Part shown: in pieces, positions 3 to 28,316 of the stretch
Position numbering within the stretch: position 1 is the stretch's first letter
Layout: each line of letters begins with the position of its first letter
IMG/VR virus record: IMGVR_UViG_3300028765_000034
Span: 1-33,934 of that record
Origin: a virus
Taxonomy: Duplodnaviria; Caudoviricetes
Length of the DNA: 33,934 nucleotides
Strand: one strand, 5' to 3'
Program-made: the position numbers and the translations under genes
The notes under the pieces: model-generated
Told to the model about the DNA's origin: nothing
The model's input: only the letters and a program-made list of their open reading frames with translations
Databases searched by the model: none

Positions 3-3000
3 AATGGCCCAGCCAATGATTTTGCCAAGAAATTCGGGCTGAAAGAGCGCAACGGAGATACTGTCTCGCGCTCTGAGATGATGGCCAACAAGGCGCTGCT
101 TGAGCACTACGGAAAAGACAGCGGACTCTTCAAGACGGAGATGCAGGCCATAATTACCGATGCGCAGGGAAACCCAGTTGGAGCCCCAATTAAAATTTCT
201 AATCCATCAGCCGCCGAAGGCTCATGGACGCATACGACCGACGAGAGCGGAAATCCAAAGATCACCCAGACTCGGGGATATGGCCAGATTCCAGACGAAA
301 TACAAGGTGTTACAATTCCTTCCGGCGGACAAGTCCACGTCGAGAACCAGTTCGTCTATCAGCCTGATGGCGAGACTCCAATTCTCAACAGCCCCAAGGA
401 TGTCAAAAATATCCTGAAAGCTCGCGGAACACTCATTCGTGATGCCATCGACAATACTCCTGATGTAGGGGCTCCAAACCGATTCCGCGCAGTCAGTGCC
501 GATGGTCTTACCTACAAAGGCACGATGACGCCTCTCCAGATCAAGGCGATCCAAGCCCTTCCAGAATCGATTGTTCCACGGTCTATCAAGGAAAAGATTC
601 TCACGCTGAATGAGGCGATCGCACGCAACGATGGCAGCAGGTTCATTGGCGACTACGCATCGCGCATCGACAAGAATGGCCGCTACGTTCCGTTCTCCTC
701 GAAGCACATCGACTTTATCCCGGTCGGCATGCATTTCAGCAAGGATGGTCACTTCCTTGTCACCACCATTTCCGTAAGCCGTATGTTTGACAAGCTGGCT
801 GCATGGAGAGACCGCATGCCAGCACGCCTTGCCCCATGGGGAGGCGATGCGGAGAAGTTCTTCAACGAGATGGTGTCTGACTACCTCAAGAACTGGCAGG
901 AGGGCAGGAAGGGTGCTGAAGGGCTCGATCCAGACCCTCAGGTCGCTCAGGCCAAGGCAAACATCTACAACGATTTCCTGAACATCTACGACAACGCGAA
1001 CGAGGGCTCCAATCCTGACCGTACTCGCCTTCCAAAGAAGACCGGGAAACTTACCAAGGAAGAGCGCCGTGACAATGCCAGCAGCGACGCAAACACGATT
1101 GTCCGCTCGCGCAGGCTCGACGCATTTGCTGACCTGATCCCTCATGCTGGGCCAAAGATTCCGATCGACTACGAGAAGGCGAAGATCAACTGGATGCCAG
1201 CTCGCTACTCCCCGGCCAAAGACCGCGAAGAATACCCAACATCCGAAGAGGGCCTGTACAGCAACCTCCAGAAAACGATCGACGCCAAAATCCAAGGCAA
1301 GGCCGCATCTCCCGAACAACTCAAGGCCCTGATTAATAATCCTCAGTCTGGAATCAAGCAGGAAGAGATCAAGTGGACTGGCGTGAACGACGCCATTGAT
1401 CGCATTGCAGCAGAGAATGGCGGGAAGGTTCCCAAGCAGGCGCTGATGGACTATCTTCGCAACGAGGGGGCCGTGAAGCTGGAGCGAGTTAATCCGAGCG
1501 GGAAGGAGTTCACTGACGATCAAATATCTGAAGGAAATTTTGAACTCAGGGATTATGGGGTTAGGGCCATTTCTCGCGGAAATTATGTTAATCTCTTTAA
1601 GACGGGATCGCATCAGGCAGTGGATTACGACGACCTTCCGCCAGACGCCCAAGATGTGTACGACAGGCATTTCAGTGAAGGCCCTGTCGGAAAGTACAAG
1701 CATTACTCGGTGCCAAGTGGGACGAATTATCAGGAGCATGTTTTGAAGATAACTCAAAATATCGCAAAGCAAGAAGCCGACGAGCTTCAATACCGACAGT
1801 CACTGAAAGACAAATACGGCGCGGGGAATGTTATCCGGCTTGCAACCCCAGAAGAAATCAAAAAGCTAGACTCGCTCGGAAAGCCAATCAGGGAAGCCGC
1901 TCAAAATTCCTTTACAGACACAGTGCATTATCCCGGCCTGTCGGGTTATGTCGCACACTCCAGAAGGGCCGACAATGTGATTAACGGAGAGCGCGGGTTG
2001 CTGCTTGAGGAAATGCAGGCAACCGGCCACCAGCGAGCAAGAAAAGAAGGCTATCGGCAGGACAGGGACGCGGAGCTGGCGTCGTTAAAGCAGGAAATGG
2101 ATTCACTTCCTGATGATGTCGGCTCGGAACCCAAGAGGCTCGAAATAAGACAAAAGATGAGGGAAGTCATGGCTGGCCCCGTGGGAATACCCGACATGCC
2201 CTTCAGGAGCACTGGTGACTGGATCACTCAACTATTCAAGCGCTCCCTGATCGACGCCGTGAAGGACGGCAAGAAATGGCTAGGCTGGGTAGGCGGAGAA
2301 GAGCAGGCTGATCGCTACGATTTGAGCAAGCAAGTTGATCGCGTTGAATACACGCTCAATGACGACGGAACCGCCAATTTCAGCGCTATTGGAAATGATA
2401 GCTTTTCTGATTTGATGTCGAAAGATCATGCGTCCAAGCAAGATGTTGCTGAAGCCTTGGGAAAAGAGGTTGCAGAGTCAATGTTCAACGACGAAGGAAT
2501 GGAAGACGAGAGCTTTGGCGAAGGAGTGAAGGCGCTCACAGGCCATCAACTCAAGGTCGGCGACGAGAAAATGAAAAAATTCTATGACGTTCAGGCCCTG
2601 AATGAGATCAAGAAATTCCTCAAGAAAATCGATCCGTCCGCAACGGTCGAGCAAACTGAAATCCCCAAAGAATCAGGCGAAGGATTTGGTCTCGGCGGAA
2701 AGCCCCGCAAAGGCGATGTGCCGATGGTGAAAATATGGAAGGTCAGCATCACTCCCGAAATCGCTCGCGTCGTGAAAGAGCAGGGACTTCCTCAATTCTC
2801 ACCAGCGAGGGAAGAGAGTGAAAAAAACCTCGTCGCGGTTCACAATACGACAGAGAAAAAAATTGAGCAGGCGCTCAAGATTGGAGGATTTGCAGCTCCG
2901 TCAATGGCTATTATCAGGAGCGACAAATCCCCGTACTCAAGCTTTGGAGACATTACCCTCGTCGCTCATCCTGACCTTGTTGACCCCCAGGCAAATAAGC

Positions 3001-4181
3001 ATTCCAGGGTGTTTAATGCGGATATTTACAGCCCAAGATACCCATCCATCAACTACAGCCTTCCCGCCGATCAGGCCAAGAAGCTATGGAAAGCAATTAA
3101 CGAAAAGCTGCCGGACATGCCAAGCGGAAAAAAGCCATTCTGGTCGCTGGATACAGACCGGAGGGATAAGCCAATCAACGAAGAGCTGCGCAATAATTAT
3201 GCCGTACAAATGGCCTTCCTGAACGATACCGACAACCTGGATAAGGTTAAGTGGAAGCTGGCAGAAAATCCAAGGTATCAGGACAATGTTGACCAAGCCG
3301 CCATTCGTGATGCCGTGACTCCTTGGGGAGAAACGGAGGGGATTGGAAAGCAATACGAAGCATGGCTCGACAATCTCATTTCCAAAAACCACATCTCCGA
3401 GAAAGAAGAAATCTTCAAGGGACACACGCCATCAGGTAGCCGAAAATATATTCCCCATTCGCTGGATAATGTCGTGAAGATGATGACAAAAACCATCCGA
3501 GATGGAGAAGGGTTCAGTTATGGCGTCCCAAGCATTCGTAGTAATGTTGCCAAGCAGTTCAAGGCCATGAAAGACATCGCCAAGAGCAGGGAGCATGTCG
3601 TGACTAAGGAGGAAATGGAATCCCTAAAGAAAGAGGTGAATGAAGAATTTCAAGAGCTTGCAGACAAGGCAATGCCAATGAGGCAAAATCAAGGAAGAGT
3701 CGGATTTGGACAGCTTGAGGCATTTTCAGACGACCTGAAGGCACTGGCTGATGGAGATATGGCGCACTTGCGCGAAATGTATCCAGACGGAGCCCCGTTT
3801 CAAGAGTGGCGCGTATATCTGGAAAAGCTGAGAAACCTCCCAACGGAATACTTTGAGTCGAAGATCCAGCGAGGCGTGCAACTAAATGAGTTTTCCGGCG
3901 CTATTGTTCCTGATGATACTTCGGAGGGAATGCTTTCAAAGCTCAAGGGTCTCGGGCTCCAGGTTAGAACTTATCCAGCAGGAGATCAGGAAGCAAGGCA
4001 GGGCGCAGTCCGAGACCTCTCTGGATCAATGGATGTGCATTTCCAGCCAGCAAGAAATAGTCAGCCGTCTTCCGCGAATGACGCGATAGAAAAGGCACTG
4101 AAGGTACTGGAGGATATTAAGAGAGAGGGGGCGATGCGGGGCGCGTCTATAACCCCACAGCCAGACAAGAATCGCCAGTAG
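3..4181 (+). CDS. Giant modular polyvalent/internal-virion-type protein, 5'-truncated by the window
   Basis: Frame is open from nt 3 to the TAG ending at 4181. Modules are separated by [WYF]xPA[RK] linkers. The middle module (GIKQEEIKWTG...HSR...EEMQ...PF...W...FYD) and the last module (VAVHN...GGFAAPSMA...FGDITL...YFESK) resemble domains of phage large polyvalent proteins. Confidence 0.7.
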   Translation, partial: NGPANDFAKKFGLKERNGDTVSRSEMMANKALLEHYGKDSGLFKTEMQAIITDAQGNPVGAPIKISNPSAAEGSWTHTTDESGNPKITQTRGYGQIPDEIQGVTIPSGGQVHVENQFVYQPDGETPILNSPKDVKNILKARGTLIRDAIDNTPDVGAPNRFRAVSADGLTYKGTMTPLQIKAIQALPESIVPRSIKEKILTLNEAIARNDGSRFIGDYASRIDKNGRYVPFSSKHIDFIPVGMHFSKDGHFLVTTISVSRMFDKLAAWRDRMPARLAPWGGDAEKFFNEMVSDYLKNWQEGRKGAEGLDPDPQVAQAKANIYNDFLNIYDNANEGSNPDRTRLPKKTGKLTKEERRDNASSDANTIVRSRRLDAFADLIPHAGPKIPIDYEKAKINWMPARYSPAKDREEYPTSEEGLYSNLQKTIDAKIQGKAASPEQLKALINNPQSGIKQEEIKWTGVNDAIDRIAAENGGKVPKQALMDYLRNEGAVKLERVNPSGKEFTDDQISEGNFELRDYGVRAISRGNYVNLFKTGSHQAVDYDDLPPDAQDVYDRHFSEGPVGKYKHYSVPSGTNYQEHVLKITQNIAKQEADELQYRQSLKDKYGAGNVIRLATPEEIKKLDSLGKPIREAAQNSFTDTVHYPGLSGYVAHSRRADNVINGERGLLLEEMQATGHQRARKEGYRQDRDAELASLKQEMDSLPDDVGSEPKRLEIRQKMREVMAGPVGIPDMPFRSTGDWITQLFKRSLIDAVKDGKKWLGWVGGEEQADRYDLSKQVDRVEYTLNDDGTANFSAIGNDSFSDLMSKDHASKQDVAEALGKEVAESMFNDEGMEDESFGEGVKALTGHQLKVGDEKMKKFYDVQALNEIKKFLKKIDPSATVEQTEIPKESGEGFGLGGKPRKGDVPMVKIWKVSITPEIARVVKEQGLPQFSPAREESEKNLVAVHNTTEKKIEQALKIGGFAAPSMAIIRSDKSPYSSFGDITLVAHPDLVDPQANKHSRVFNADIYSPRYPSINYSLPADQAKKLWKAINEKLPDMPSGKKPFWSLDTDRRDKPINEELRNNYAVQMAFLNDTDNLDKVKWKLAENPRYQDNVDQAAIRDAVTPWGETEGIGKQYEAWLDNLISKNHISEKEEIFKGHTPSGSRKYIPHSLDNVVKMMTKTIRDGEGFSYGVPSIRSNVAKQFKAMKDIAKSREHVVTKEEMESLKKEVNEEFQELADKAMPMRQNQGRVGFGQLEAFSDDLKALADGDMAHLREMYPDGAPFQEWRVYLEKLRNLPTEYFESKIQRGVQLNEFSGAIVPDDTSEGMLSKLKGLGLQVRTYPAGDQEARQGAVRDLSGSMDVHFQPARNSQPSSANDAIEKALKVLEDIKREGAMRGASITPQPDKNRQ

Positions 4182-4295: not shown

Positions 4296-6674
4296 ATGAG
4301 CGCAGATAAAACCCCCAAAAGCCTTGCAGACATCAAAGACCCAAAGGATGTAGTCTGCATCATGGTGGATAATGGCATTTTTGGACATTTTGCCGAGCGC
4401 CTAGCAAAGACGTACAAGAAGGTTTACTTGGTTACTCCCTGGATTAGCGCCTTCCCGAAATTCAATCTAACGCACGTTGGGTACGGCGTTGAGAATGTTC
4501 ACATCGTTGATTCAATTTATGGCCCTCACTTTCTGGAGGCGGATTTGTTTTTTTATCCAGATATTTATTTTGGGCCGGAGCAGGAGCATCTTATCAGCCT
4601 CGGAAAGAAGGTGTGGGGATGCCGCACGGGGGAATGCCTTGAACTCTCCAGGCGCGGGATGAAGTCCATTCTCACCGCGCTTGATCTGCCGGTTGGAAAG
4701 TTCGCCCATATTGTCGGCATGGATAATCTTAGGGCCTATCTTAAAGAGCATAATAATGTCCATGTTAAAATCGACAAACACAGAGGGTCTTTTGAAACAT
4801 TTAAGTCAACTAACTATGATTACGTTATGCCTAAGCTGGACGAGATCGAGTGTTCGCTTGGCGCATTCAAGACAATCGTGCAATTCACGGTCGAGGACGA
4901 CCTTCCTGATTGTGTAGAGCTTGGAACTGATGCTTTTGCCATTACCGGCGCTGATGGGGTTTGTCAATACCCATCTAAACTAATATCAGGAATAGAGATA
5001 AAAGATGTTGGTTTTCTCGCGAAATATACAAAATATACAGACCTCCCAAAACAGCTAACTGAGTTTAATGAGGCCATCAAGCCGGTTCTGGCCGCATATG
5101 ACTGGAGAGGATTCTTCTCTACCGAAGTCCGCATCGCGCAAGGCGGCAAAAATTACATGATTGATTTTTGCTTCGACAACGAGACCGAAGTGCTCACGCA
5201 TGACGGCTGGAAGCTATTTGCTAACTCTACGGCATCCGATAAATTTGCCACGCTCAATCTCGACAGGTTAGAGACAGAATATCAGCAGGCGAGCCGATAT
5301 ATTGAATACCCCTATCAGGGAAAAATGATTCATATCAGCAATCGCAAAAAATCAATTGAGTGCCTCGTTACGCCAGAGCATGAAATTCTGAGAACAGATA
5401 GAGGCAAGAATCGAATCTTTAAGGAGCGAGCCGACTCACTTACGGACAAGGGGTTTATTCCTCGCGTCGCTCCTTATTATGGCGGCAGCGACGAGCCATT
5501 CTTTGTGCTTCCAGCATACCATCATGAGTGGGATTTTATAGGTCAATACGGGCACAAGATTTGCACGAAGGCAAAAGATTGCCCGGAAGTTAAAATTCCC
5601 ATTAAGGATTGGGCGGCATTTATGGGATGGTATCTTTCTGAAGGATCGACATCCAATAGTTATGTGACGCAGATTTCGCAGACCAAGCTGGTGGCTGAAT
5701 GTGAGGAGGTTCTGGATCGTCTTCCGTTCGACTTTGATTATGACGGAAATATGTTCCGGTGCAGCAATGTGCAGCTCGCCACCTACCTGAAGAAATACGG
5801 ACTGTGCGATAAAAAATATATCCCCGACTATATCCGTCACGCAAAAAAGGATGTGATCGAGGCATTCCTGCTGGCATTTTCGATGGGCGACGGAAGCTAT
5901 TTGACTGACAGAGATAAGTATTACACTTCGTCAAAGGTAATGGCAGACCAATTACAGGAGCTTATCTTCAAGATCGGAAAGCTTGCCAACATTCACGTTC
6001 GGAAAACCAAAGGAACCCAAACAACAGGGTTTGTAAAAAACTACACCCGCAAGCACGATATGTACGTTCTTGAGGTTCATGATTCATTCACGGATTTCTG
6101 GTTTGAAACCCAGGCCCGCAAGTCGCAATACATCAACGAGGTCGATTATGACGGAACAGTGCATTGCGTTACCGTTCCAAACGGAACGCTGTATGTGCGC
6201 AGAAACGGAAAGCCATTCTGGGCGTGCAACTGTGCGCGAGCCCCATCTCCGCCAGGAGAACTCTACTGTGAAATGTACAGTAACTTGCCCGAGGTCGTCT
6301 GGGCTGGCGCTAACGGGATTCTCCTTGAGCCAGAGAGCGAATTTTCTCACGGCGTCGAACTGATGCTTCACAGCTCTTTTGCCGACAGTGGATTCCAACC
6401 AATTTCCTTTCCGAAAGAAATTGAGCGGTTTGTAAAAATCAGAAACCACTGCGTCATTGATGATGTTCATTATGCTATCCCGCAGGCCGTAGGTCTCCCT
6501 GAGTGCGGGGCCGTCATCGGCATGGGAAATAGCATTGAAGAGGCAATGGATCACGCGGTCGAAAATTCCGAGCAGGTCACGGGATACTACCTGGAGGCCA
6601 AGACCGGAGCAATCGACGACATCAAGAAGCAGCTTGATATTATGGACGAGAGAGGGTTGAACTATTTCAAATAG
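4296..6674 (+). CDS. PurD-like ATP-grasp ligase precursor containing an intein (438 aa after splicing)
   Basis: VWG...LELSRRGMKSIL...LPV, VKID, and spliced GFFSTEVRI...YMIDF/CARAPSP match the PurD/ATP-grasp IEFNxR region. C-terminal GAVIGMGNSIEEA resembles the PurD C-domain. Confidence 0.75.
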   Translation: MSADKTPKSLADIKDPKDVVCIMVDNGIFGHFAERLAKTYKKVYLVTPWISAFPKFNLTHVGYGVENVHIVDSIYGPHFLEADLFFYPDIYFGPEQEHLISLGKKVWGCRTGECLELSRRGMKSILTALDLPVGKFAHIVGMDNLRAYLKEHNNVHVKIDKHRGSFETFKSTNYDYVMPKLDEIECSLGAFKTIVQFTVEDDLPDCVELGTDAFAITGADGVCQYPSKLISGIEIKDVGFLAKYTKYTDLPKQLTEFNEAIKPVLAAYDWRGFFSTEVRIAQGGKNYMIDFCFDNETEVLTHDGWKLFANSTASDKFATLNLDRLETEYQQASRYIEYPYQGKMIHISNRKKSIECLVTPEHEILRTDRGKNRIFKERADSLTDKGFIPRVAPYYGGSDEPFFVLPAYHHEWDFIGQYGHKICTKAKDCPEVKIPIKDWAAFMGWYLSEGSTSNSYVTQISQTKLVAECEEVLDRLPFDFDYDGNMFRCSNVQLATYLKKYGLCDKKYIPDYIRHAKKDVIEAFLLAFSMGDGSYLTDRDKYYTSSKVMADQLQELIFKIGKLANIHVRKTKGTQTTGFVKNYTRKHDMYVLEVHDSFTDFWFETQARKSQYINEVDYDGTVHCVTVPNGTLYVRRNGKPFWACNCARAPSPPGELYCEMYSNLPEVVWAGANGILLEPESEFSHGVELMLHSSFADSGFQPISFPKEIERFVKIRNHCVIDDVHYAIPQAVGLPECGAVIGMGNSIEEAMDHAVENSEQVTGYYLEAKTGAIDDIKKQLDIMDERGLNYFK
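5169..6230 (+). mobile_element. Intein with LAGLIDADG homing endonuclease (354 aa)
   Basis: Block A CFDNETEVLTHDGW, block B VTPEHEIL, LAGLIDADG blocks FMGWYLSEGS and FLLAFSMGDGS, blocks F/G VHCVTVPNGTLYVRRNGKPFWACN followed by +1 Cys. Confidence 0.93.
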
Positions 6675-9765: not shown

Positions 9766-9787
9766 AAAACAACCAACCCATAAACAC

Positions 9788-12484: not shown

Positions 12485-13264
12485 ATGAAACTTCAAATTA
12501 CCCATCGTTTAGATTCATCCAAAGTGCTGTTTAAGGGAGATGCAGATTCAATTCTCGCATTGCTCAAAATGGCAATTTCATCCGGTGCCAACCTGTCCGG
12601 TGCCAACCTGTACAGTGCCGACCTGTCCGGTGCCGACCTGTCCCGTGCCGACCTGTCCGGTGCCAACCTGTCCGGTGCCAACCTGTCCGGTGCCAACCTG
12701 TACAGTGCCGACCTGTACAGTGCCGACCTGTCCGGTGCCAACCTGTCCGGTGCCAACCTGTCCGGTGCCAACCTGTACAGTGCCGACCTGTCCCGTGCCG
12801 ACCTGTCCGGTGCCAACCTGTCCGGTGCCAACCTGTACAGTGCCGACCTGTCCGGTGCCGACCTGTCCGGTGCCGACCTGTCCCGTGCCGACCTGTCCGG
12901 TGCCAACCTGTCCGGTGCTTTGAATGCGGATCTTGTTATCGCCAGAACCCGCATTCTCGGGGAAGGTGACTTGATTGGATGGAAGAAATGCCAATACGGT
13001 AAAATCGTCAAACTACTTATTCCCAAAGATGCGAAACGATCTCACGCATTTGGCAGAAAATGCCGCGCTGAGTACGCCGATGTATTGGAAATCTCGGAAG
13101 GCAAAACTGCTAAAAGCAATAGTGATACAAACAGCAGTGTAAAACCTCTTACCTATAAGGCTGGAGAGAGGGTTGTAGCACATGAATGGTGCGAGGATTT
13201 CACACAAGAATGCGCCGCAGGAATCCATTTTTACATCACCGAAATCGAGGCGAAGAATCACTAA
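12485..13264 (+). CDS. Pentapeptide-repeat protein with DUF5758-like C-terminus
   Basis: A(N/D)LS(G/R) repeats, then IGWKKC...KCRAE.A.V...[11 protein letters not shown]. Confidence 0.9.
12581..12918 (+). repeat. 15-bp tandem repeat (22 full units plus a partial one)
   Basis: Units of the form TCCGGT/TACAGT/TCCCGT + GCC(A/G)ACCTG. Confidence 0.95.
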
Positions 13265-16525: not shown

Positions 16526-16723
16526 ATGGGAGCCACCGTCACAAAACGAGAGGCTTCCCTTGAATCAAAATATCCTTGCCGTGATTGCGAGCGCGTAATC
16601 ACTGGCAAGGAGGTTCAGGAAGGAGTACAAGTCTATTACGCCGACAGACACCGAGACCCACTACTGACAACCTATCGTTGCTCAGAGTGCTTCGACGATC
16701 GCCTTCAATCATTTCACCATTGA
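16526..16723 (+). CDS. Small zinc-finger protein
   Basis: CRDC...CSEC. Confidence 0.55.
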   Translation: MGATVTKREASLESKYPCRDCERVITGKEVQEGVQVYYADRHRDPLLTTYRCSECFDDRLQSFHH

Positions 16724-17004
16724 AAATCGCAGAGAAAATAATTCAAAAGGCAATCACAAGTTGTCTTGATAGGCTGGGGATTCCCCACATCTGTCCGCCG
16801 ATGTACATGCGATCAACCCTCCCGGTTGGTTGGCCTGACCTCACGTTCGTTGTGAAGGGAATCCCTTATGCCGTCGAAGTCAAAACAGCCGTAGGTAAGC
16901 GCAGTAAAGAGCAAATCGAGATGCACGAGCGCCTATCGCGCAACGGCTGGCATGTTCACACCGTCCGATCTCTCGATGAATTTCTGAAAGTCATCAACCC
17001 TTGA
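16720..17004 (+). CDS. VRR-NUC nuclease/resolvase
   Basis: EKIIQ...GWPDL...VEVKT..GK.S.EQ. TTG start; the stop codon comes from the IS right end. Confidence 0.85.
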   Translation: MKIAEKIIQKAITSCLDRLGIPHICPPMYMRSTLPVGWPDLTFVVKGIPYAVEVKTAVGKRSKEQIEMHERLSRNGWHVHTVRSLDEFLKVINP

Positions 17005-17170
17005 CATCCTCCCCGGCCTGAAGGCGCGGGGATTCCAAGAATACAAATATGCTAGACATTTGCAGAGCTAGGTTGGTTGACACTTCGACGAGCATTGCGC
17101 GCCGAGGCCGAAGCCTTGGCGTGACTGATATGCTCTCCATGTCCTTTAACCGGCTGTCCACCGGCAAATT
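16981..17170 (-). ncRNA. Predicted omegaRNA/reRNA with guide GGGUUGAUGACUUUCAGAAA
   Basis: Right-end hairpin plus flanking sequence, as established for TnpB. The 5' end is approximate. Confidence 0.6.
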
Positions 17171-18291
17171 GAAGAATGTTTTTCGCGGCATTCTGATCTC
17201 TGTCCAAATGCTCGCCGCAGTTTTCGCATTTGAACTCGCGCACTTCCAAACCAAGGCTGCTGTGTATGTATCCGCAGGAATTGCACCGCCTGCTGCTTGG
17301 GAAGAATCTGTCTGCTACGCGCAACTCGCGGCCATACCAGGCACACTTGTAAGTCAGCATCGAACGGAACTGCCCAAAGCTGGCGCAACTGATATGCTTT
17401 GCGAGTTTGTGGTTCTTGACCATGCCGCGCACGTTCAAGTCCTCGATTGCCAGAACATCGAACCGGCGCACCAAATCTGTGGTGAGCTTGTCCAGTGTGT
17501 CCTTCCGGCAGTTGGCGATCTTGGCGTGCAAACGAGCCACTTTCAACCGCTGCTGATTCCAACGGCCGCTGCCCTTGATGCGACGGGCGAGAACCCGTTG
17601 CAATCTCGCCAGCCTTGCGGCGTGGCGGGCAGTGTGGCGTGGGTTGGCTATTCGAGTGCCGTCACTCAAGGTTGCCAAACGGCTAATTCCAAGGTCAATC
17701 CCGACCTTGCTTCCAGTCTTGGGGAGCGCGGCCTTGGCTGGTTCGTCCAGACAAAGACTCACGAAATAGCGTCCATCCCTGCCCTTGGTTATCGTGCAGG
17801 TAGTAGGCTCGCTCGCGAAACCGCGACTCCATTTGACATGAAGCCGACCGACTTTGGAAATTGTGAGGTTGCGGTTTTCCGCATCCCATTTGAAACCGCC
17901 AGAATGATATTCGGCGGATTGCTTGCCGTGCTTGGAAGCAAACCTTGGATAGGCTGTCCGCTTGGCAAAGAAATTGGAGAACGCAGTTTGCAAGTGCCGC
18001 AATGCCTGCTGCTGTGGGATGCTGGACGATTCACGCAGAAAAGCAAACTCGCCGGTATTACGATGTTTAGTCCAAGCCGCGCTGCTGGCGTTGTAATTGA
18101 CCGGCTTGCCGTCTTTGAAGCTGTCCGTGCGGAGGCGCAAGGCAAAATTGTAGGCGTGCCTGACACAGCCGAACTCCCGCGCCAGTTGCCGCGCTTGGCG
18201 GTCTGTCGGGTAGCATCGGAATGTCATGCGAACTTTCACTTGCAAGAATCTACTCCGTCTTGTAAGGTTTGTCCAATGCTAATTTCAACCC
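17001..18291 (-). mobile_element. TnpB-only IS200/IS605-family (IS1341-like) element
   Basis: The - strand ends in GGAATCCCCGCGCCTTCAGGCCGGGGAGGATGTCAA, a classic right end. No tnpA. Left boundary inferred next to TTTAT. Confidence 0.85.
17052..18239 (-). CDS. tnpB: RNA-guided endonuclease TnpB
   Basis: FRCYPT HTH, RuvC motifs GIDLG, IEDL and DRDQNAA all intact, CxxC-CxxC zinc finger. Likely GTG start 7 nt after TAGATT. Confidence 0.95.
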   Translation of the reverse strand: MKVRMTFRCYPTDRQARQLAREFGCVRHAYNFALRLRTDSFKDGKPVNYNASSAAWTKHRNTGEFAFLRESSSIPQQQALRHLQTAFSNFFAKRTAYPRFASKHGKQSAEYHSGGFKWDAENRNLTISKVGRLHVKWSRGFASEPTTCTITKGRDGRYFVSLCLDEPAKAALPKTGSKVGIDLGISRLATLSDGTRIANPRHTARHAARLARLQRVLARRIKGSGRWNQQRLKVARLHAKIANCRKDTLDKLTTDLVRRFDVLAIEDLNVRGMVKNHKLAKHISCASFGQFRSMLTYKCAWYGRELRVADRFFPSSRRCNSCGYIHSSLGLEVREFKCENCGEHLDRDQNAAKNILQFAGGQPVKGHGEHISHAKASASARNARRSVNQPSSANV

Positions 18292-18304
18292 ATAAATAAA
18301 TCCA

Positions 18305-18523
18305 ATGAACCCAAATAAAAACCCCACACAATGCGAAGCTATCCTCAACTTCCTCCAGAATGGCCATGTCCTGACCGCGCTGGATGCCCTACAGCTCTTC
18401 GGATGCTTCCGTCTGGCGTCTCGCATCCACGAACTCAACAAACTCCCGGGAGTGACCATTGAGAGCAAGAAGGTCGAAGGCGAGAATGGTAAGCACTGGA
18501 ATGAATACAGGATTGCTGCGTGA
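18305..18523 (+). CDS. Winged HTH DNA-binding protein (HTH_39-like)
   Basis: TQCEAILNFL...LTALDA...FGCFRLASRIHEL. Confidence 0.8.
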   Translation: MNPNKNPTQCEAILNFLQNGHVLTALDALQLFGCFRLASRIHELNKLPGVTIESKKVEGENGKHWNEYRIAA

Positions 18524-19443
18524 ACTACTTCCAGCACCACATCGGAGACTATCGCAGGGACACTAGTCACCTCTCCCTGCTTGAGCATGGCGTTTACCGC
18601 CAGCTACTCGATTGGTACTACCTTGACGAGAAACCAATACCCGCCGAAACCCAAGTGGTTTATCGTCGGTTATCGGCAAAAACCGAGTCGGATCAGGCCG
18701 CTGTTGATGCGGTGCTCGCTGACTTCTTTCGACCCACCAAAGAGGGATGGAAGCACAAGAAATGCGAAGAGGTTATCGAGGAGTATCACAAAAACTCTGA
18801 AAAAAATAAGGAAAATGGGAAAAAAGGAGGCCGTCCTCCAAAAGAGAAAAATAACCCACAAGAAACCCAGTCGGTTATTGTTGGGTTGCCAGAACAAACC
18901 GAATCAAAAGGCAACCAAGAACCATTAACCAATAAACCAGAAACCAAAGAACCACAAACCAGTCTACCCCCTAAGCCCCCAAGGGGGCGAGAGAGTGACT
19001 TCGAGACTTTTTGGGCGGCATACCCCCGAAAGGTTGGAAAGGATGCGGCTCGCCGCTGTTGGATGAAAAAGAAGAACCTTCCGCCTGTTGAGAATGTTCT
19101 GGCTGCTGTGAAGAAGCAGGTGAGGTCTCAAGAGTGGCAGCGCGATAGCGGACAGTTCATCCCTCACCCGGCAACTTGGATCAATCAAGGTCGATGGGAC
19201 GATGGCGGAATGGACTACCAAGCGCTCTCGGGCAAGCCTCAGCGGGCCGCATCACCACCAGCCCCACAGGGGCCTTCGGTTGAAGAGCAACGCGAGGCGC
19301 TGGCGCAGGAGTGGTTTAACAAACAAACATTCGCCTCCGCTCCGCTTCCTCACAAAGATTGGCCACCAGAGCTCAAAAAACAGTATGAGGATTATCTGGC
19401 CGCCGAGATGGCTGAAGCATTTGCAAAAATCCGCCGATCATGA
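18520..19443 (+). CDS. YdaU/DUF1376-family replication initiator
   Basis: NYFQHHIGDY...HLSLLEHGVY..LLD.YY; C-terminal FETFWAAYPRKVGK...IPHPATWINQGRW. Confidence 0.88.
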   Translation: MNYFQHHIGDYRRDTSHLSLLEHGVYRQLLDWYYLDEKPIPAETQVVYRRLSAKTESDQAAVDAVLADFFRPTKEGWKHKKCEEVIEEYHKNSEKNKENGKKGGRPPKEKNNPQETQSVIVGLPEQTESKGNQEPLTNKPETKEPQTSLPPKPPRGRESDFETFWAAYPRKVGKDAARRCWMKKKNLPPVENVLAAVKKQVRSQEWQRDSGQFIPHPATWINQGRWDDGGMDYQALSGKPQRAASPPAPQGPSVEEQREALAQEWFNKQTFASAPLPHKDWPPELKKQYEDYLAAEMAEAFAKIRRS

Positions 19444-19964
19444 GTAGAAAACTCGACGCTGTAAAAAACCTTGCCCTCCACCCCGGAACCGGGGAAACGG
19501 AGTGGCAAGCTGCTGCGATCGCATACTTCCGAATCCTCCGGGCCAATGGAGGCAAGGAGCCAGTTGATAAACCGCAGGGCGTTCGCATGGAGCACCCCAT
19601 GCATCAAAACCCTGATCCATGGTATCCATTTGGTCAGGCAAGTGCCAAGGCAGATGCGGAGGCACGAACACATCACCACTTTTATAAATCGCCCGAGGAG
19701 CAGGCGAGGGAGGCAGGTAATTTGCGCAGGCAGCGCGAGGATAATGCCGCACGGAAACGTCGAGACGCTGAAGAGGAATTTGCGAAGTGGAAAGAAGGAC
19801 AGCGCAAAAAGGATGAGGAGAACAAATTCTCAAAACCATTTTCCGAGACGTGGAATGGAGGTGTAAGACATGAGACCGCAACCGAAGCTAATATAAGGCA
19901 AGAGAATGCAGAGATTGCACGCCGCGTTATGGAAGACATTTACCGTCGCGCAAATGGCGGTTAA
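19440..19964 (+). CDS. Hypothetical protein
   Basis: ATGA overlap. Confidence 0.65.
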   Translation: MSRKLDAVKNLALHPGTGETEWQAAAIAYFRILRANGGKEPVDKPQGVRMEHPMHQNPDPWYPFGQASAKADAEARTHHHFYKSPEEQAREAGNLRRQREDNAARKRRDAEEEFAKWKEGQRKKDEENKFSKPFSETWNGGVRHETATEANIRQENAEIARRVMEDIYRRANGG

Positions 19965-22283: not shown

Positions 22284-22784
22284 ATGAAAATAACACATAA
22301 AATCACAGGCGCGACTCTATTTGAGTCAGAAGCCGAAACGATGAAGCAGCTTTTAGAATACGCACACCTTGGAGACGCAGACCTTGGAGGCGCAGACCTT
22401 AGAGACGCAGACCTTGTAGGCGCAGACCTTAGAGGCGCATACCTTGGAGACGCATACCTTGGAGGCGCAGACCTTAGAGACGCAAAATTGCCATACGCTC
22501 CCAAGATCGAAAACATTGATTCAAGGATTCTGGCAGCTATTGAGTCTGGCGGCTCTCTAAACATGGGACAATGGCACTCATGCGAAACCACCCATTGCAG
22601 AGCAGGGTGGGCCATTCACCTAACAGGAGAGGCTGGAAAAGTTCTTGAGGATCAAATTGGGTCAGCCAATGCAGCAGTTTTGATCTACATGGCAAGTCGA
22701 GGGAGTTTCCCTAATTTCTATGCCGACGATGCAACGGCTATGGCTGATATTAAGGCGTGTGCAGCTAAGGAGAAGAGAGAATAG
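22284..22784 (+). CDS. Second pentapeptide-repeat protein
   Basis: Eight 15-bp units at 22362-22481; C-terminal [14 protein letters not shown]. Confidence 0.85.
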
Positions 22785-27495: not shown

Positions 27496-27687
27496 ATGAA
27501 ATTATCACAGAAAAAGACCTGCAATGAGTGTAAGGCGCTTGGAGGCTTCAGCTATCGCCCTGTATGCTTGCTTGGATTTTCCATAAAGGCAGGAAAGCGT
27601 CAATTTGATGCGGCGGTTCCTATGGAGCCATGCCAAAAGCCAAAAACAACCACGGGTCTTGTTTCTCTATTGAACAAGCGCCGATAA
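27496..27687 (+). CDS. Small Cys-rich protein
   Basis: KTCNECKA...C.LG...P.EPC.KP. Confidence 0.6.
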   Translation: MKLSQKKTCNECKALGGFSYRPVCLLGFSIKAGKRQFDAAVPMEPCQKPKTTTGLVSLLNKRR

Positions 27688-27704
27688 TACAACCAATAAA
27701 TCCA

Positions 27705-28316
27705 ATGGCCCTACAGCAATACACTATAAAACAAATTTCCTATACCGAGGCAATGAAGCTGGTGGTGGAAAGGCACTATCTGCATCGCAGGTGCCCGTGC
27801 AGCATAGCCTTCGGGCTGTTTCTGGGCGAGGAGATAAAGGGGGTTGTTTGTTACGGTACGCCCAGCAGCTCGTCATTAAGGTGTGGAATTGCTGGCCCAG
27901 AGAATGCAAAAAATGTCATAGAGCTGACTCGCCTTTGGGTGTGCGATTCTGTTCCGAAAAATGGAGAGTCATTCCTCATTGGGAACACAGTGCGGAAATC
28001 TGGAAAGGAGATCGTGGTTTCGTATGCAGAGATAAATCAAGGACACTTGGGTGTTGTTTATCAGGCAACGAATTGGATTTACACCGGTCTTTCCGCAAAG
28101 CGGACGAATTGGACAATTGCAGGAATAGATAAGCACTGCCAAACCATAGCGGACAAATATACAGCGGAGGAGATACGCCAGAAATACGGAGATAGATTCA
28201 GCCTGCAAGAGCGCCCAAGAAAGCACAGATATGTTTTCATCAACGCATCCAAGCCCAGAAAGAATAAGTTGCTTTCCGTGCTGCGATACCCCGTACTTCC
28301 ATATCCAAAAAAATAA
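27705..28316 (+). CDS. mom: Mom-like (GNAT-fold) adenine DNA modification enzyme
   Basis: HYLHR, GVVCYGTP, ELTRLW, KNGESFLI, VSYA...GH.G.VYQATNWIYTG, KHRY. Confidence 0.85.
   Translation: MALQQYTIKQISYTEAMKLVVERHYLHRRCPCSIAFGLFLGEEIKGVVCYGTPSSSSLRCGIAGPENAKNVIELTRLWVCDSVPKNGESFLIGNTVRKSGKEIVVSYAEINQGHLGVVYQATNWIYTGLSAKRTNWTIAGIDKHCQTIADKYTAEEIRQKYGDRFSLQERPRKHRYVFINASKPRKNKLLSVLRYPVLPYPKK

Follow-up and report, generated by a model that had tools for sequence, protein, structure and literature searches.

How did a tnpB gene with no transposase gene at its side come to lie at the end of a phage nuclease gene, and what does its RNA guide do there? The window, by which we mean the whole stretch of DNA that was analysed, is a linear virus record of 33,934 nucleotides (33.9 kb, about 54% complete), and its genes include terminase, SSB, AAA_24, DUF1376 and Mom. 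Related records are labelled L or G, and sequencing runs are labelled X. The runs that contain the window are peat metagenomes by label, and in 18 of the 24 listed ones at least 98% of its sampled words are present; all 18 are flagged as possible sources of the record and possibly belong to one campaign. The tnpB element lies on the minus strand, opposing a run of plus-strand genes, and sits in reverse orientation at the stop codon of the phage's VRR-NUC-like nuclease/resolvase gene (16720..17004, plus strand). The VRR-NUC label, given by the original prediction, is weak, the Pfam match of the window gene itself (E 0.035) being below the cut-off. The homolog L010 has a Pfam match above the cut-off, and PHROGs matches are to endonuclease/resolvase (1e-11 to 1e-12). 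On the other side of the element, a winged-HTH gene (18305..18523, plus strand) starts with ATGA, which reads TCAT on the minus strand and is an alternative motif candidate.

Elsewhere in the window, a 792-aa ORF (4296-6674) with weak intein and LAGLIDADG matches may be a further mobile nuclease of this phage, and a 1367-aa protein (78-4181) has a PBECR5 nuclease domain. Two pentapeptide-repeat genes and a Mom-family DNA modification gene lie at 12485-13264, 22284-22784 and 27630-28316; the first of the two pentapeptide-repeat genes differs in length among related phages. Within the small ORF preceding the VRR-NUC-like gene, 39 bp (16573-16611) align to their own reverse complement.

The tnpB gene and its right end

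The tnpB ORF (17052..18245, minus strand) encodes 397 aa from a TTG codon; judging from the position of the -10 box and the starts of relatives, translation more likely begins without a leader at the GTG at 18239. The ORF carries three Pfam TnpB domains, HTH_OrfB, OrfB_IS605 and Zn-ribbon. The RuvC D/E/D triad is intact, as had been predicted. D184, E268 and D350 line up in an alignment with the catalytic columns of ISDra2, and the triad and the four cysteines of the intact Zn finger are invariant in 40/40 aligned homologs. D191 is named as an ISDra2 catalytic residue (PMC8612924). The expected absence of tnpA was confirmed for the 33.9-kb record (about 54% complete), in which no Y1 tnpA was found, and none of the three related records searched contains one (0/3).

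The right end (17001..17035, minus strand; fold z -2.05) consists of the DNA guide GAAT, a hairpin and the terminal TCAA, an arrangement that is that of IS608 (PMC5934647). The ...GTCAA noticed earlier at 17001 is thus part of a canonical GAAT-hairpin-GTCAA end. The reverse strand of this end gives the host gene its TGA stop. It had been proposed that removal of the element restores the VRR-NUC gene, but removal restores nothing, because the right end provides TGA at 17002-17004 and the ORF reads INP-stop in the filled allele too; the protein end is the same with or without the insertion.

A predicted omegaRNA scaffold (16988..17137, minus strand; fold z -2.0) overlaps the 3' end of tnpB and the right end. 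It has a weak match to Rfam HgcC (full model covered, E 0.0022, below the gathering score), a family that we take to be linked to TnpB. The guide is encoded by the host flank (16981..17000, minus strand), which is the 3' end of the VRR-NUC-like gene and matches the target in the element-free allele L185 at 20/20 positions. A sigma-70-type tnpB promoter is predicted at 18247..18275 (minus strand; TGGACA, 17 nt, TAGATT) by consensus match only; two such matches were found versus 0.8 in shuffles. The contigs of the RNA runs X19 and X20 extend over tnpB alone, with letters other than those of the window or with an intact hairpin. Therefore, these contigs stem from other copies.

The left end

No left-end hairpin was found at the window element by a fold test (z 0.05), in agreement with the original prediction. 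A copy of the element, L003, lies in another phage, at another site and with another guide, and is 98.1% identical in nucleotides over 16998-18289. Its left end reads TTATGGGTTGAAA, a hairpin, and then GTTGAAATTAG. Since this 98%-identical copy keeps the left-end hairpin, the window copy has lost it. The window lacks 38 bp, hairpin included, that lie between two GTTGAAA repeats of L003; GTTGAAA at 18283..18289 (minus strand) marks the deletion junction, and sequence unique to the element starts from 18284. RNA run X19, which belongs to another study, likewise has the intact hairpin, there as a loose end at 18289. Because excision in ISGst elements requires the left-end guide and hairpin (10.1101/2023.03.14.532601), the window copy is likely immobile for TnpA. 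Judged by its two ends, the element derives from an IS605-family tnpB element by deletion of the left end and is not an intact member. For the left boundary of L003 there are several candidates, at a distance of 6, 17 or 19-20 nt from the DNA guide on its upstream side, and a search for its empty site did not find one. The window and L003 tnpB genes differ by 7 amino-acid and 11 silent codon changes, which are too few to prove selection.

The element-free allele

The original prediction held that removal of 17001-18291 gives the empty site, with TTTAT directly 5' of the guide target. A real empty allele was found, and it differs from this. In run X17, a 244-nt contig (depth 13.5) connects 17000 to 18285 alongside filled contigs (depth 22.8-29.4), contig depth not being a share of cells. 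The empty contig is listed in one of the five DNA runs compared over the junction, and X17 may be the source sample of the window itself. The first letters of the contig matched one metagenome contig, L185; its junction motif gave 0 matches in viral contigs and 1 in metagenome contigs. Run X8 has L185-type letters at 16758-16761 and no empty joint listed; contigs drop rare variants.

In L185, the nuclease gene ends INP-TAA, and TTAT, with G before it, stands directly 5' of the 20/20 guide target. A 191-bp unit (L185 2872-3062; 42% GC) lies between two 11-bp host repeats, TCAACCCATAA, both of which stand before a start codon. The same 11-mer, as the host repeat before the HTH gene, occurs also in the left end of L003, an identity for which shared composition accounts only in part. 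The 191-bp unit contains an orphan 66-aa ORF without a family; among 1.84 billion proteins, it matched its own fragment and, weakly, one repeat protein. The real allele thus carries 191 extra bases at the junction, and its letters are G-TTAT, not TTTAT. The original prediction had said that a different empty junction or a motif other than TTTAT would speak against it, and each of these was seen in part. The clean junction had a single match in viral contigs, L012, which was discarded as chance, having no blastn similarity to the window, and among the close alleles examined for it only filled ones were found.

L185 contains a second, unrelated IS605 tnpB element (1312-2595; 380 aa, intact ends) after TTGAA. 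It is inserted at the start codon of the VRR-NUC-like gene, and its protein is 37% identical to the window TnpB. Its empty site in the window is 16724..16725 (plus strand). Against the guide of this second tnpB, the window has mismatches at positions 4, 7 and 19, of which those at 4 and 7 are silent. It is possible that the two silent mismatches represent escape from the second tnpB.

The insertion motif

TAM recognition is treated in PMC10097598; TTTAT is the motif of ISGst2 (10.1101/2023.03.14.532601) and TTAT that of ISDge10 (PMC13507860). Insertion lies 3' of a 4-5-nt motif that matches the left-end DNA guide, the motif being TTAT in L185 and the guide AAAA in L003. Among the 159 loci with a TnpB match that we surveyed, the left end could be read in 75 distinct contexts. 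TCAT stands 10-20 nt upstream of GA-type DNA guides in 55/61 contexts, whereas the 14 contexts with AA-type guides have TTAT (9), both motifs (2), neither (2) or TCAT (1). By this clade rule, the AAAA guide of L003 predicts TTAT; in L003, TTAT lies at 17 nt and again at 6 nt, and TCAT lies at 20 nt. Together with the observed empty junction, this favours TTAT as the insertion motif. The 5-nt motif TTTAT was rejected as unsupported; the empty allele reads GTTAT.

Evidence on the motif of the nuclease is split. E112, which is retained in the window TnpB, is present in 56/57 TCAT relatives and in 0/10 TTAT relatives, and the nearest labelled relative, L004 (87%), uses TCAT; both point to TCAT. 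T114 is present in 57/57 TCAT relatives, is replaced by H in the window and differs in 9/10 TTAT relatives, which points to TTAT. The motif labels of L109, L110 and L112 were assigned by eye, and about three TTAT origins suffice to explain the 31 rows of the tree, so that the residue contrasts are few. The DNA guide AAAA and T114H arose together on one branch, which is what a joint switch to TTAT would produce. We consider it fairly probable that this TnpB is able to cut behind TTAT. If it still requires TCAT, the observed empty allele could not be cut.

Independent switches from TCAT to TTAT (L129; the L139/L143 group) coincide with E112T, a candidate position for motif specificity. Elements of the TCAT clade (L026-L184) lie backwards at ATG starts, with the frame open for at least 60 codons in 39/50 versus 24/100 control frames; they often lie at stops as well (24/50 versus 32/100 control frames). 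In this clade, TGA comes from the right end, and a Shine-Dalgarno motif often comes from the left end (33/51). Many of the viral loci L147-L184 form a group of tnpB loci about 41% identical, with a common AT-rich upstream region and no pattern-recognised ends.

The seed match upstream of tnpB

As the original prediction described, TCAACCC is present on both sides of the element (16994-17000 and 18285-18291), and TTTAT followed by exactly 7 seed bases forms a self half-site (18285..18296, minus strand) close to the promoter, 9 nt upstream of the predicted -35 box at 18275. The half-site matches only 7 of the first 16 guide positions. The exact TTATGGGTTGA is expected only about 0.02 times in the window (our own estimate, for uniform base composition), and the self-match is therefore not uniform chance. 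The IS200/IS605 family makes no target repeat of such a kind (PMC13565253), and both copies of the 7-bp flanking repeat pre-exist in the element-free allele. Because both repeats exist in L185, the seed copy at 18285-18291 is host sequence. Most simply, the self-match upstream of the -35 box would be the second host repeat, moved beside tnpB by deletion. The 7-bp duplication and the self-match are probably by-products and not a transposition signature, and the occurrence of a short match beside the element's own predicted promoter is probably an accident. The deletion may have been triggered by a TnpB cut, though the host repeat suffices. A second TTTAT, with a 6-nt seed match, lies at 9773-9783, within the start region of the 9788 gene; a near copy of the host repeat stands before this gene. 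In 39 starts hand-picked from the ORF list, phage gene starts are A/C-rich and have no Shine-Dalgarno motifs; ATAAA occurs at 10/39 of them (1.7 expected) and CAACCC at 2/39 (0.5 expected).

Among the relatives, the motif with at least 7 own seed bases was found upstream of tnpB for 2/90 distinct guides, compared with 0/8010 cross pairs; the other guides follow the null. L085 (Streptomyces spinoverrucosus) has TCAT, 9 target bases and 10 extra bases before the left end (1314-1345). Its Streptomyces relatives have a single copy, and 4/14 loci read TCAT-ACCC (L191, L195, L198 and L199). Since the copy is single in the related genomes, the seed copy of L085 is a true duplication. In L143 and L145, the left end lies about 110 nt upstream of tnpB, and its base 5 is unlike that of the siblings and matches the own guide; this change yields a 7-nt seed copy behind TTAT. 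Seed copies of the L085 and L143 type would fit recombinants between empty and filled alleles, with a motif-side end shorter than the TnpB cut distance of 15-21 bp (PMC8612924). About 2% of related elements have true guide-seed copies at their left junctions, and such copies may be a trace of repair by recombination. A wider search for left ends in Streptomyces (15/201 genomes) gave 16 contexts and 7 readable guides (6 distinct), with 0 long seed copies by eye.

Two other sources of identity between left end and target were considered and rejected. In IS608, extended transposon-target pairing joins bases that lie 3' of the hairpin to bases that precede the motif in the target (PMC5934647), and this geometry differs from that seen here. 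A general preference for left-end-like targets was not observed, as in-register identity in 60 elements was 2.95 of 10 for own and 2.88 of 10 for cross comparisons. An anti-Shine-Dalgarno motif was found in 33/51 left ends and 20/51 guides, versus 6/51 control flanks. Left ends mimic the displaced start region, and this is a general background to the seed likeness.

Spread between phages

The records G264 and G265 carry the same deleted element, and their upstream arm is 98.4-98.9% identical to L185, including an HNH-like gene. This gene (phrog_2340) encodes a putative endonuclease, is located after the SSB gene at L185 635-1111 and in L007 and L008, and is absent from the window, whose own SSB gene shows only about 76% identity. 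The window and G264 share a tract (16526..19491), a candidate co-conversion tract, in which 16526-18519 shows 0 differences and the remainder up to 19491 shows 2; the adjoining bins have 73% and 83-94% identity. Because the tract is identical in phages with differing flanks, the element-bearing tract moved between backgrounds. No other near-identical run between the window and G264 is as long. Further stretches of 0.5-1 kb are 100% identical between the two, and ordinary phage mosaicism can therefore make such a tract. The pattern fits homing without proving it.

The original prediction also suggested that the element homes into, or cuts, relatives that lack it. An empty allele with a 20/20 target behind TTAT in the same run supports this predicted homing or cutting, as does the unchanged element-bearing tract in backgrounds with different flanks. 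In X17, the target in the co-occurring element-free allele is intact, and the coexistence of empty and filled alleles means that any drive is incomplete. The literature searched, mostly outside subscription journals and without supplements, contained no case of a left-end-less TnpB homing between phages.

Explanations for the locus

With moderate confidence, we propose that the element is an IS605-type tnpB without a left-end hairpin, which spreads by cut-and-copy homing between co-infecting phages. TnpA acting in trans would first have inserted the element after TTAT, the reverse of the host A-TAA stop; in the product that is observed, the right end gives a new TGA and the protein still ends INP. 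A microhomology deletion, perhaps during repair of a TnpB cut, would then have removed the left-end hairpin and the 191-bp host segment, in one step via GTTGA or in two via the 11-bp and 7-bp repeats; its products are seen in the window, and its place in the order is our reading. As a result, the second host copy of TTATGGGTTGA, which belongs to the HTH translation-start region, would have come to lie 9 nt from the tnpB -35 box. The window allele would thus follow from insertion at the first repeat and deletion to the second. In the last step, TnpB and its omegaRNA would cut element-free genomes within the nuclease gene, at a depth of 15-21 bp, and the element would be copied in together with its flanks during repair. 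Given the intact-looking nuclease and the predicted guide, a role as a homing endonuclease among peat phages is likely.

It is also conceivable, although we regard it as rather unlikely, that the same insertion and deletion left a decaying passenger, whose TnpB, through a motif mismatch or lack of expression, no longer cuts the empty allele and whose tract was spread by ordinary phage recombination. Both E112 and the nearest relative suggest TCAT, whereas TTAT is what the empty allele has; the two alleles coexist, other identical tracts exist, and the few codon changes against L003 (7 amino-acid, 11 silent) do not amount to proof of selection. However, TnpB keeps its catalytic triad and Zn finger, the right end, the scaffold and the promoter are likewise intact, the guide matches the target perfectly, the AAAA guide and T114H changed together as for a joint TTAT switch, and the longest near-identical run covers the element.

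A pure homing scar would place duplication and hairpin loss in one event. A clean empty allele, with TTTAT directly before the target and without the 191-bp unit, would have existed; the motif-side end of the cut, with 7 target bases, would have joined the donor left end via GTTGA, and the 191-bp unit would be a later insertion. True seed duplications in relatives agree with this (TCAT and 9 target bases in L085; 7 bases with one position unlike the siblings in L143), as do the 2/90 guides against 0/8010 cross pairs, copy lengths that are all below the 15-21-bp cut distance, and the 66-aa ORF without a family in the 191-bp unit. Against it, the sole match to the clean junction arose by chance and only filled close alleles were found, both sightings of the empty allele contain the 191-bp unit, and the host repeat already accounts for the seed copy. 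Such an origin is distinctly unlikely.

We also consider quite improbable a combined reading, in which the TnpB has turned into a pure RNA-guided homing endonuclease of a wild phage population. Locked by loss of its left end, it would drive a 2-3-kb tract through co-infecting phages, evict a rival TnpB that occupies the opposite end of the 280-bp gene, and throttle its promoter by seed-only binding to the host repeat that the deletion brought beside the -35 box. In this combined reading, the window allele mismatches the rival TnpB guide at two seed positions.

Autorepression of tnpB through seed-only binding was the most surprising idea of the original prediction and is little supported. In its selected form, TnpB would bind TTTAT and the 7 seed bases without cutting and damp its own promoter, and the deleted allele would be common for this reason. 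Indeed, the half-site lies 9 nt from the -35 box, 18/24 listed runs contain 98-99% of the words of the filled stretch (one campaign or source being possible), TldR proteins bind via a motif and a seed of about 6 nt (PMC10705468), dTnpB2 has limited seed requirements in ChIP-seq (10.1101/2023.03.14.532601), and the TnpB of ISDge10, when given a 10-nt guide, binds but does not cut (PMC13507860). Occupancy of the self half-site by TnpB is therefore plausible, provided that the motif is TTAT, and the geometry would allow repression. However, the half-site is host sequence that occurs as a repeat in the element-free allele, it matches 7/16 positions and lies outside the promoter hexamers, and binding in ChIP is not repression. 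Furthermore, it is not conserved: the guides of L003 and L004 have no match in their own upstream regions, and a comparable match occurs for 2/90 relatives. If the motif is TCAT, the idea fails outright. IS605 tnpB promoters are known to be controlled by Arc (10.64898/2026.09.24.754181), and no report of natural seed-only TnpB autorepression was found in literature mostly outside subscription journals, supplements excluded. Functional autorepression by the half-site is improbable, and selection for it is lower still and very improbable.

Finally, it is scarcely credible that the motif is TCAT of the clade, with insertion at the ATGA stop-start overlap of the nuclease and HTH genes and 18285-18304 as the left end: TTCAT does stand at 18305-18309, 18 nt before GAAA (clade range 11-18 nt), TCAT relatives often lie at start codons (39/50 versus 24/100 control frames) and E112 is kept, but the 20 bases of 18285-18304 exist in the element-free allele and are therefore host sequence, their first 9-10 nt differ from L003 despite 98% identity elsewhere, and no empty allele at the ATGA overlap was found.

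Comparison with known systems

The locus is a natural pair of filled and element-free alleles from the same peat sample, in which excision by TnpA is likely impossible; any spread must therefore be homing between phages. TnpB homing has so far been shown as a back-up to TnpA excision, and 'non-restorative homing' is listed in a review table (PMC13565253). This allele pair makes it directly testable with short synthetic targets. The locus would also serve as a test of the switch from TCAT to TTAT, with residues 112 and 114 as candidates, and of competition between two RNA-guided nucleases that flank one gene.

The element shares with tnpB-only members of IS200/IS605 (IS1341-type; ISDra2, IS608, ISGst2, ISDge10) the TnpB domains, the triad, the GAAT-hairpin-TCAA right end, a guide from the right flank, a short motif 5' of the insertion point and the absence of tnpA; about 25% of tnpB genes have tnpA nearby (10.1101/2023.03.14.532601). 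It differs from them in having no left-end hairpin and in its 7-bp repeat, which the family does not make. As in TnpB cut-and-copy homing (Karvelis 2021, PMC8612924; Meers 2023, 10.1101/2023.03.14.532601), the guide targets the element-free allele and repair would copy the element. The work consulted on such homing deals with the donor joint or sister chromosome after TnpA excision, whereas here excision is likely impossible and the target would be a co-occurring phage relative, the case that the review table names 'non-restorative homing'. TldR repressors likewise bind a motif and a short seed near a promoter, but they are nuclease-dead, with a degenerate RuvC and conserved promoter targets, whereas the RuvC active site of the window TnpB is intact and its match to the promoter region is not conserved across loci (2/90 relatives). 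Arc also acts on the tnpB promoters of IS605 elements but is a separate protein, and no arc gene is present in the ORF list of the window. Free-standing homing endonucleases of phages (T4 Seg/Mob, intronless homing) are similar in being stand-alone nucleases between conserved genes, with a target in the neighbouring gene and a shared flanking tract, and co-conversion by them is described in PMC13565253. Their recognition is specified by protein, whereas that of the present element would be by an RNA-guided RuvC nuclease, and self-protection here comes from separation of the motif from the target, unlike in the protein-specified enzymes.
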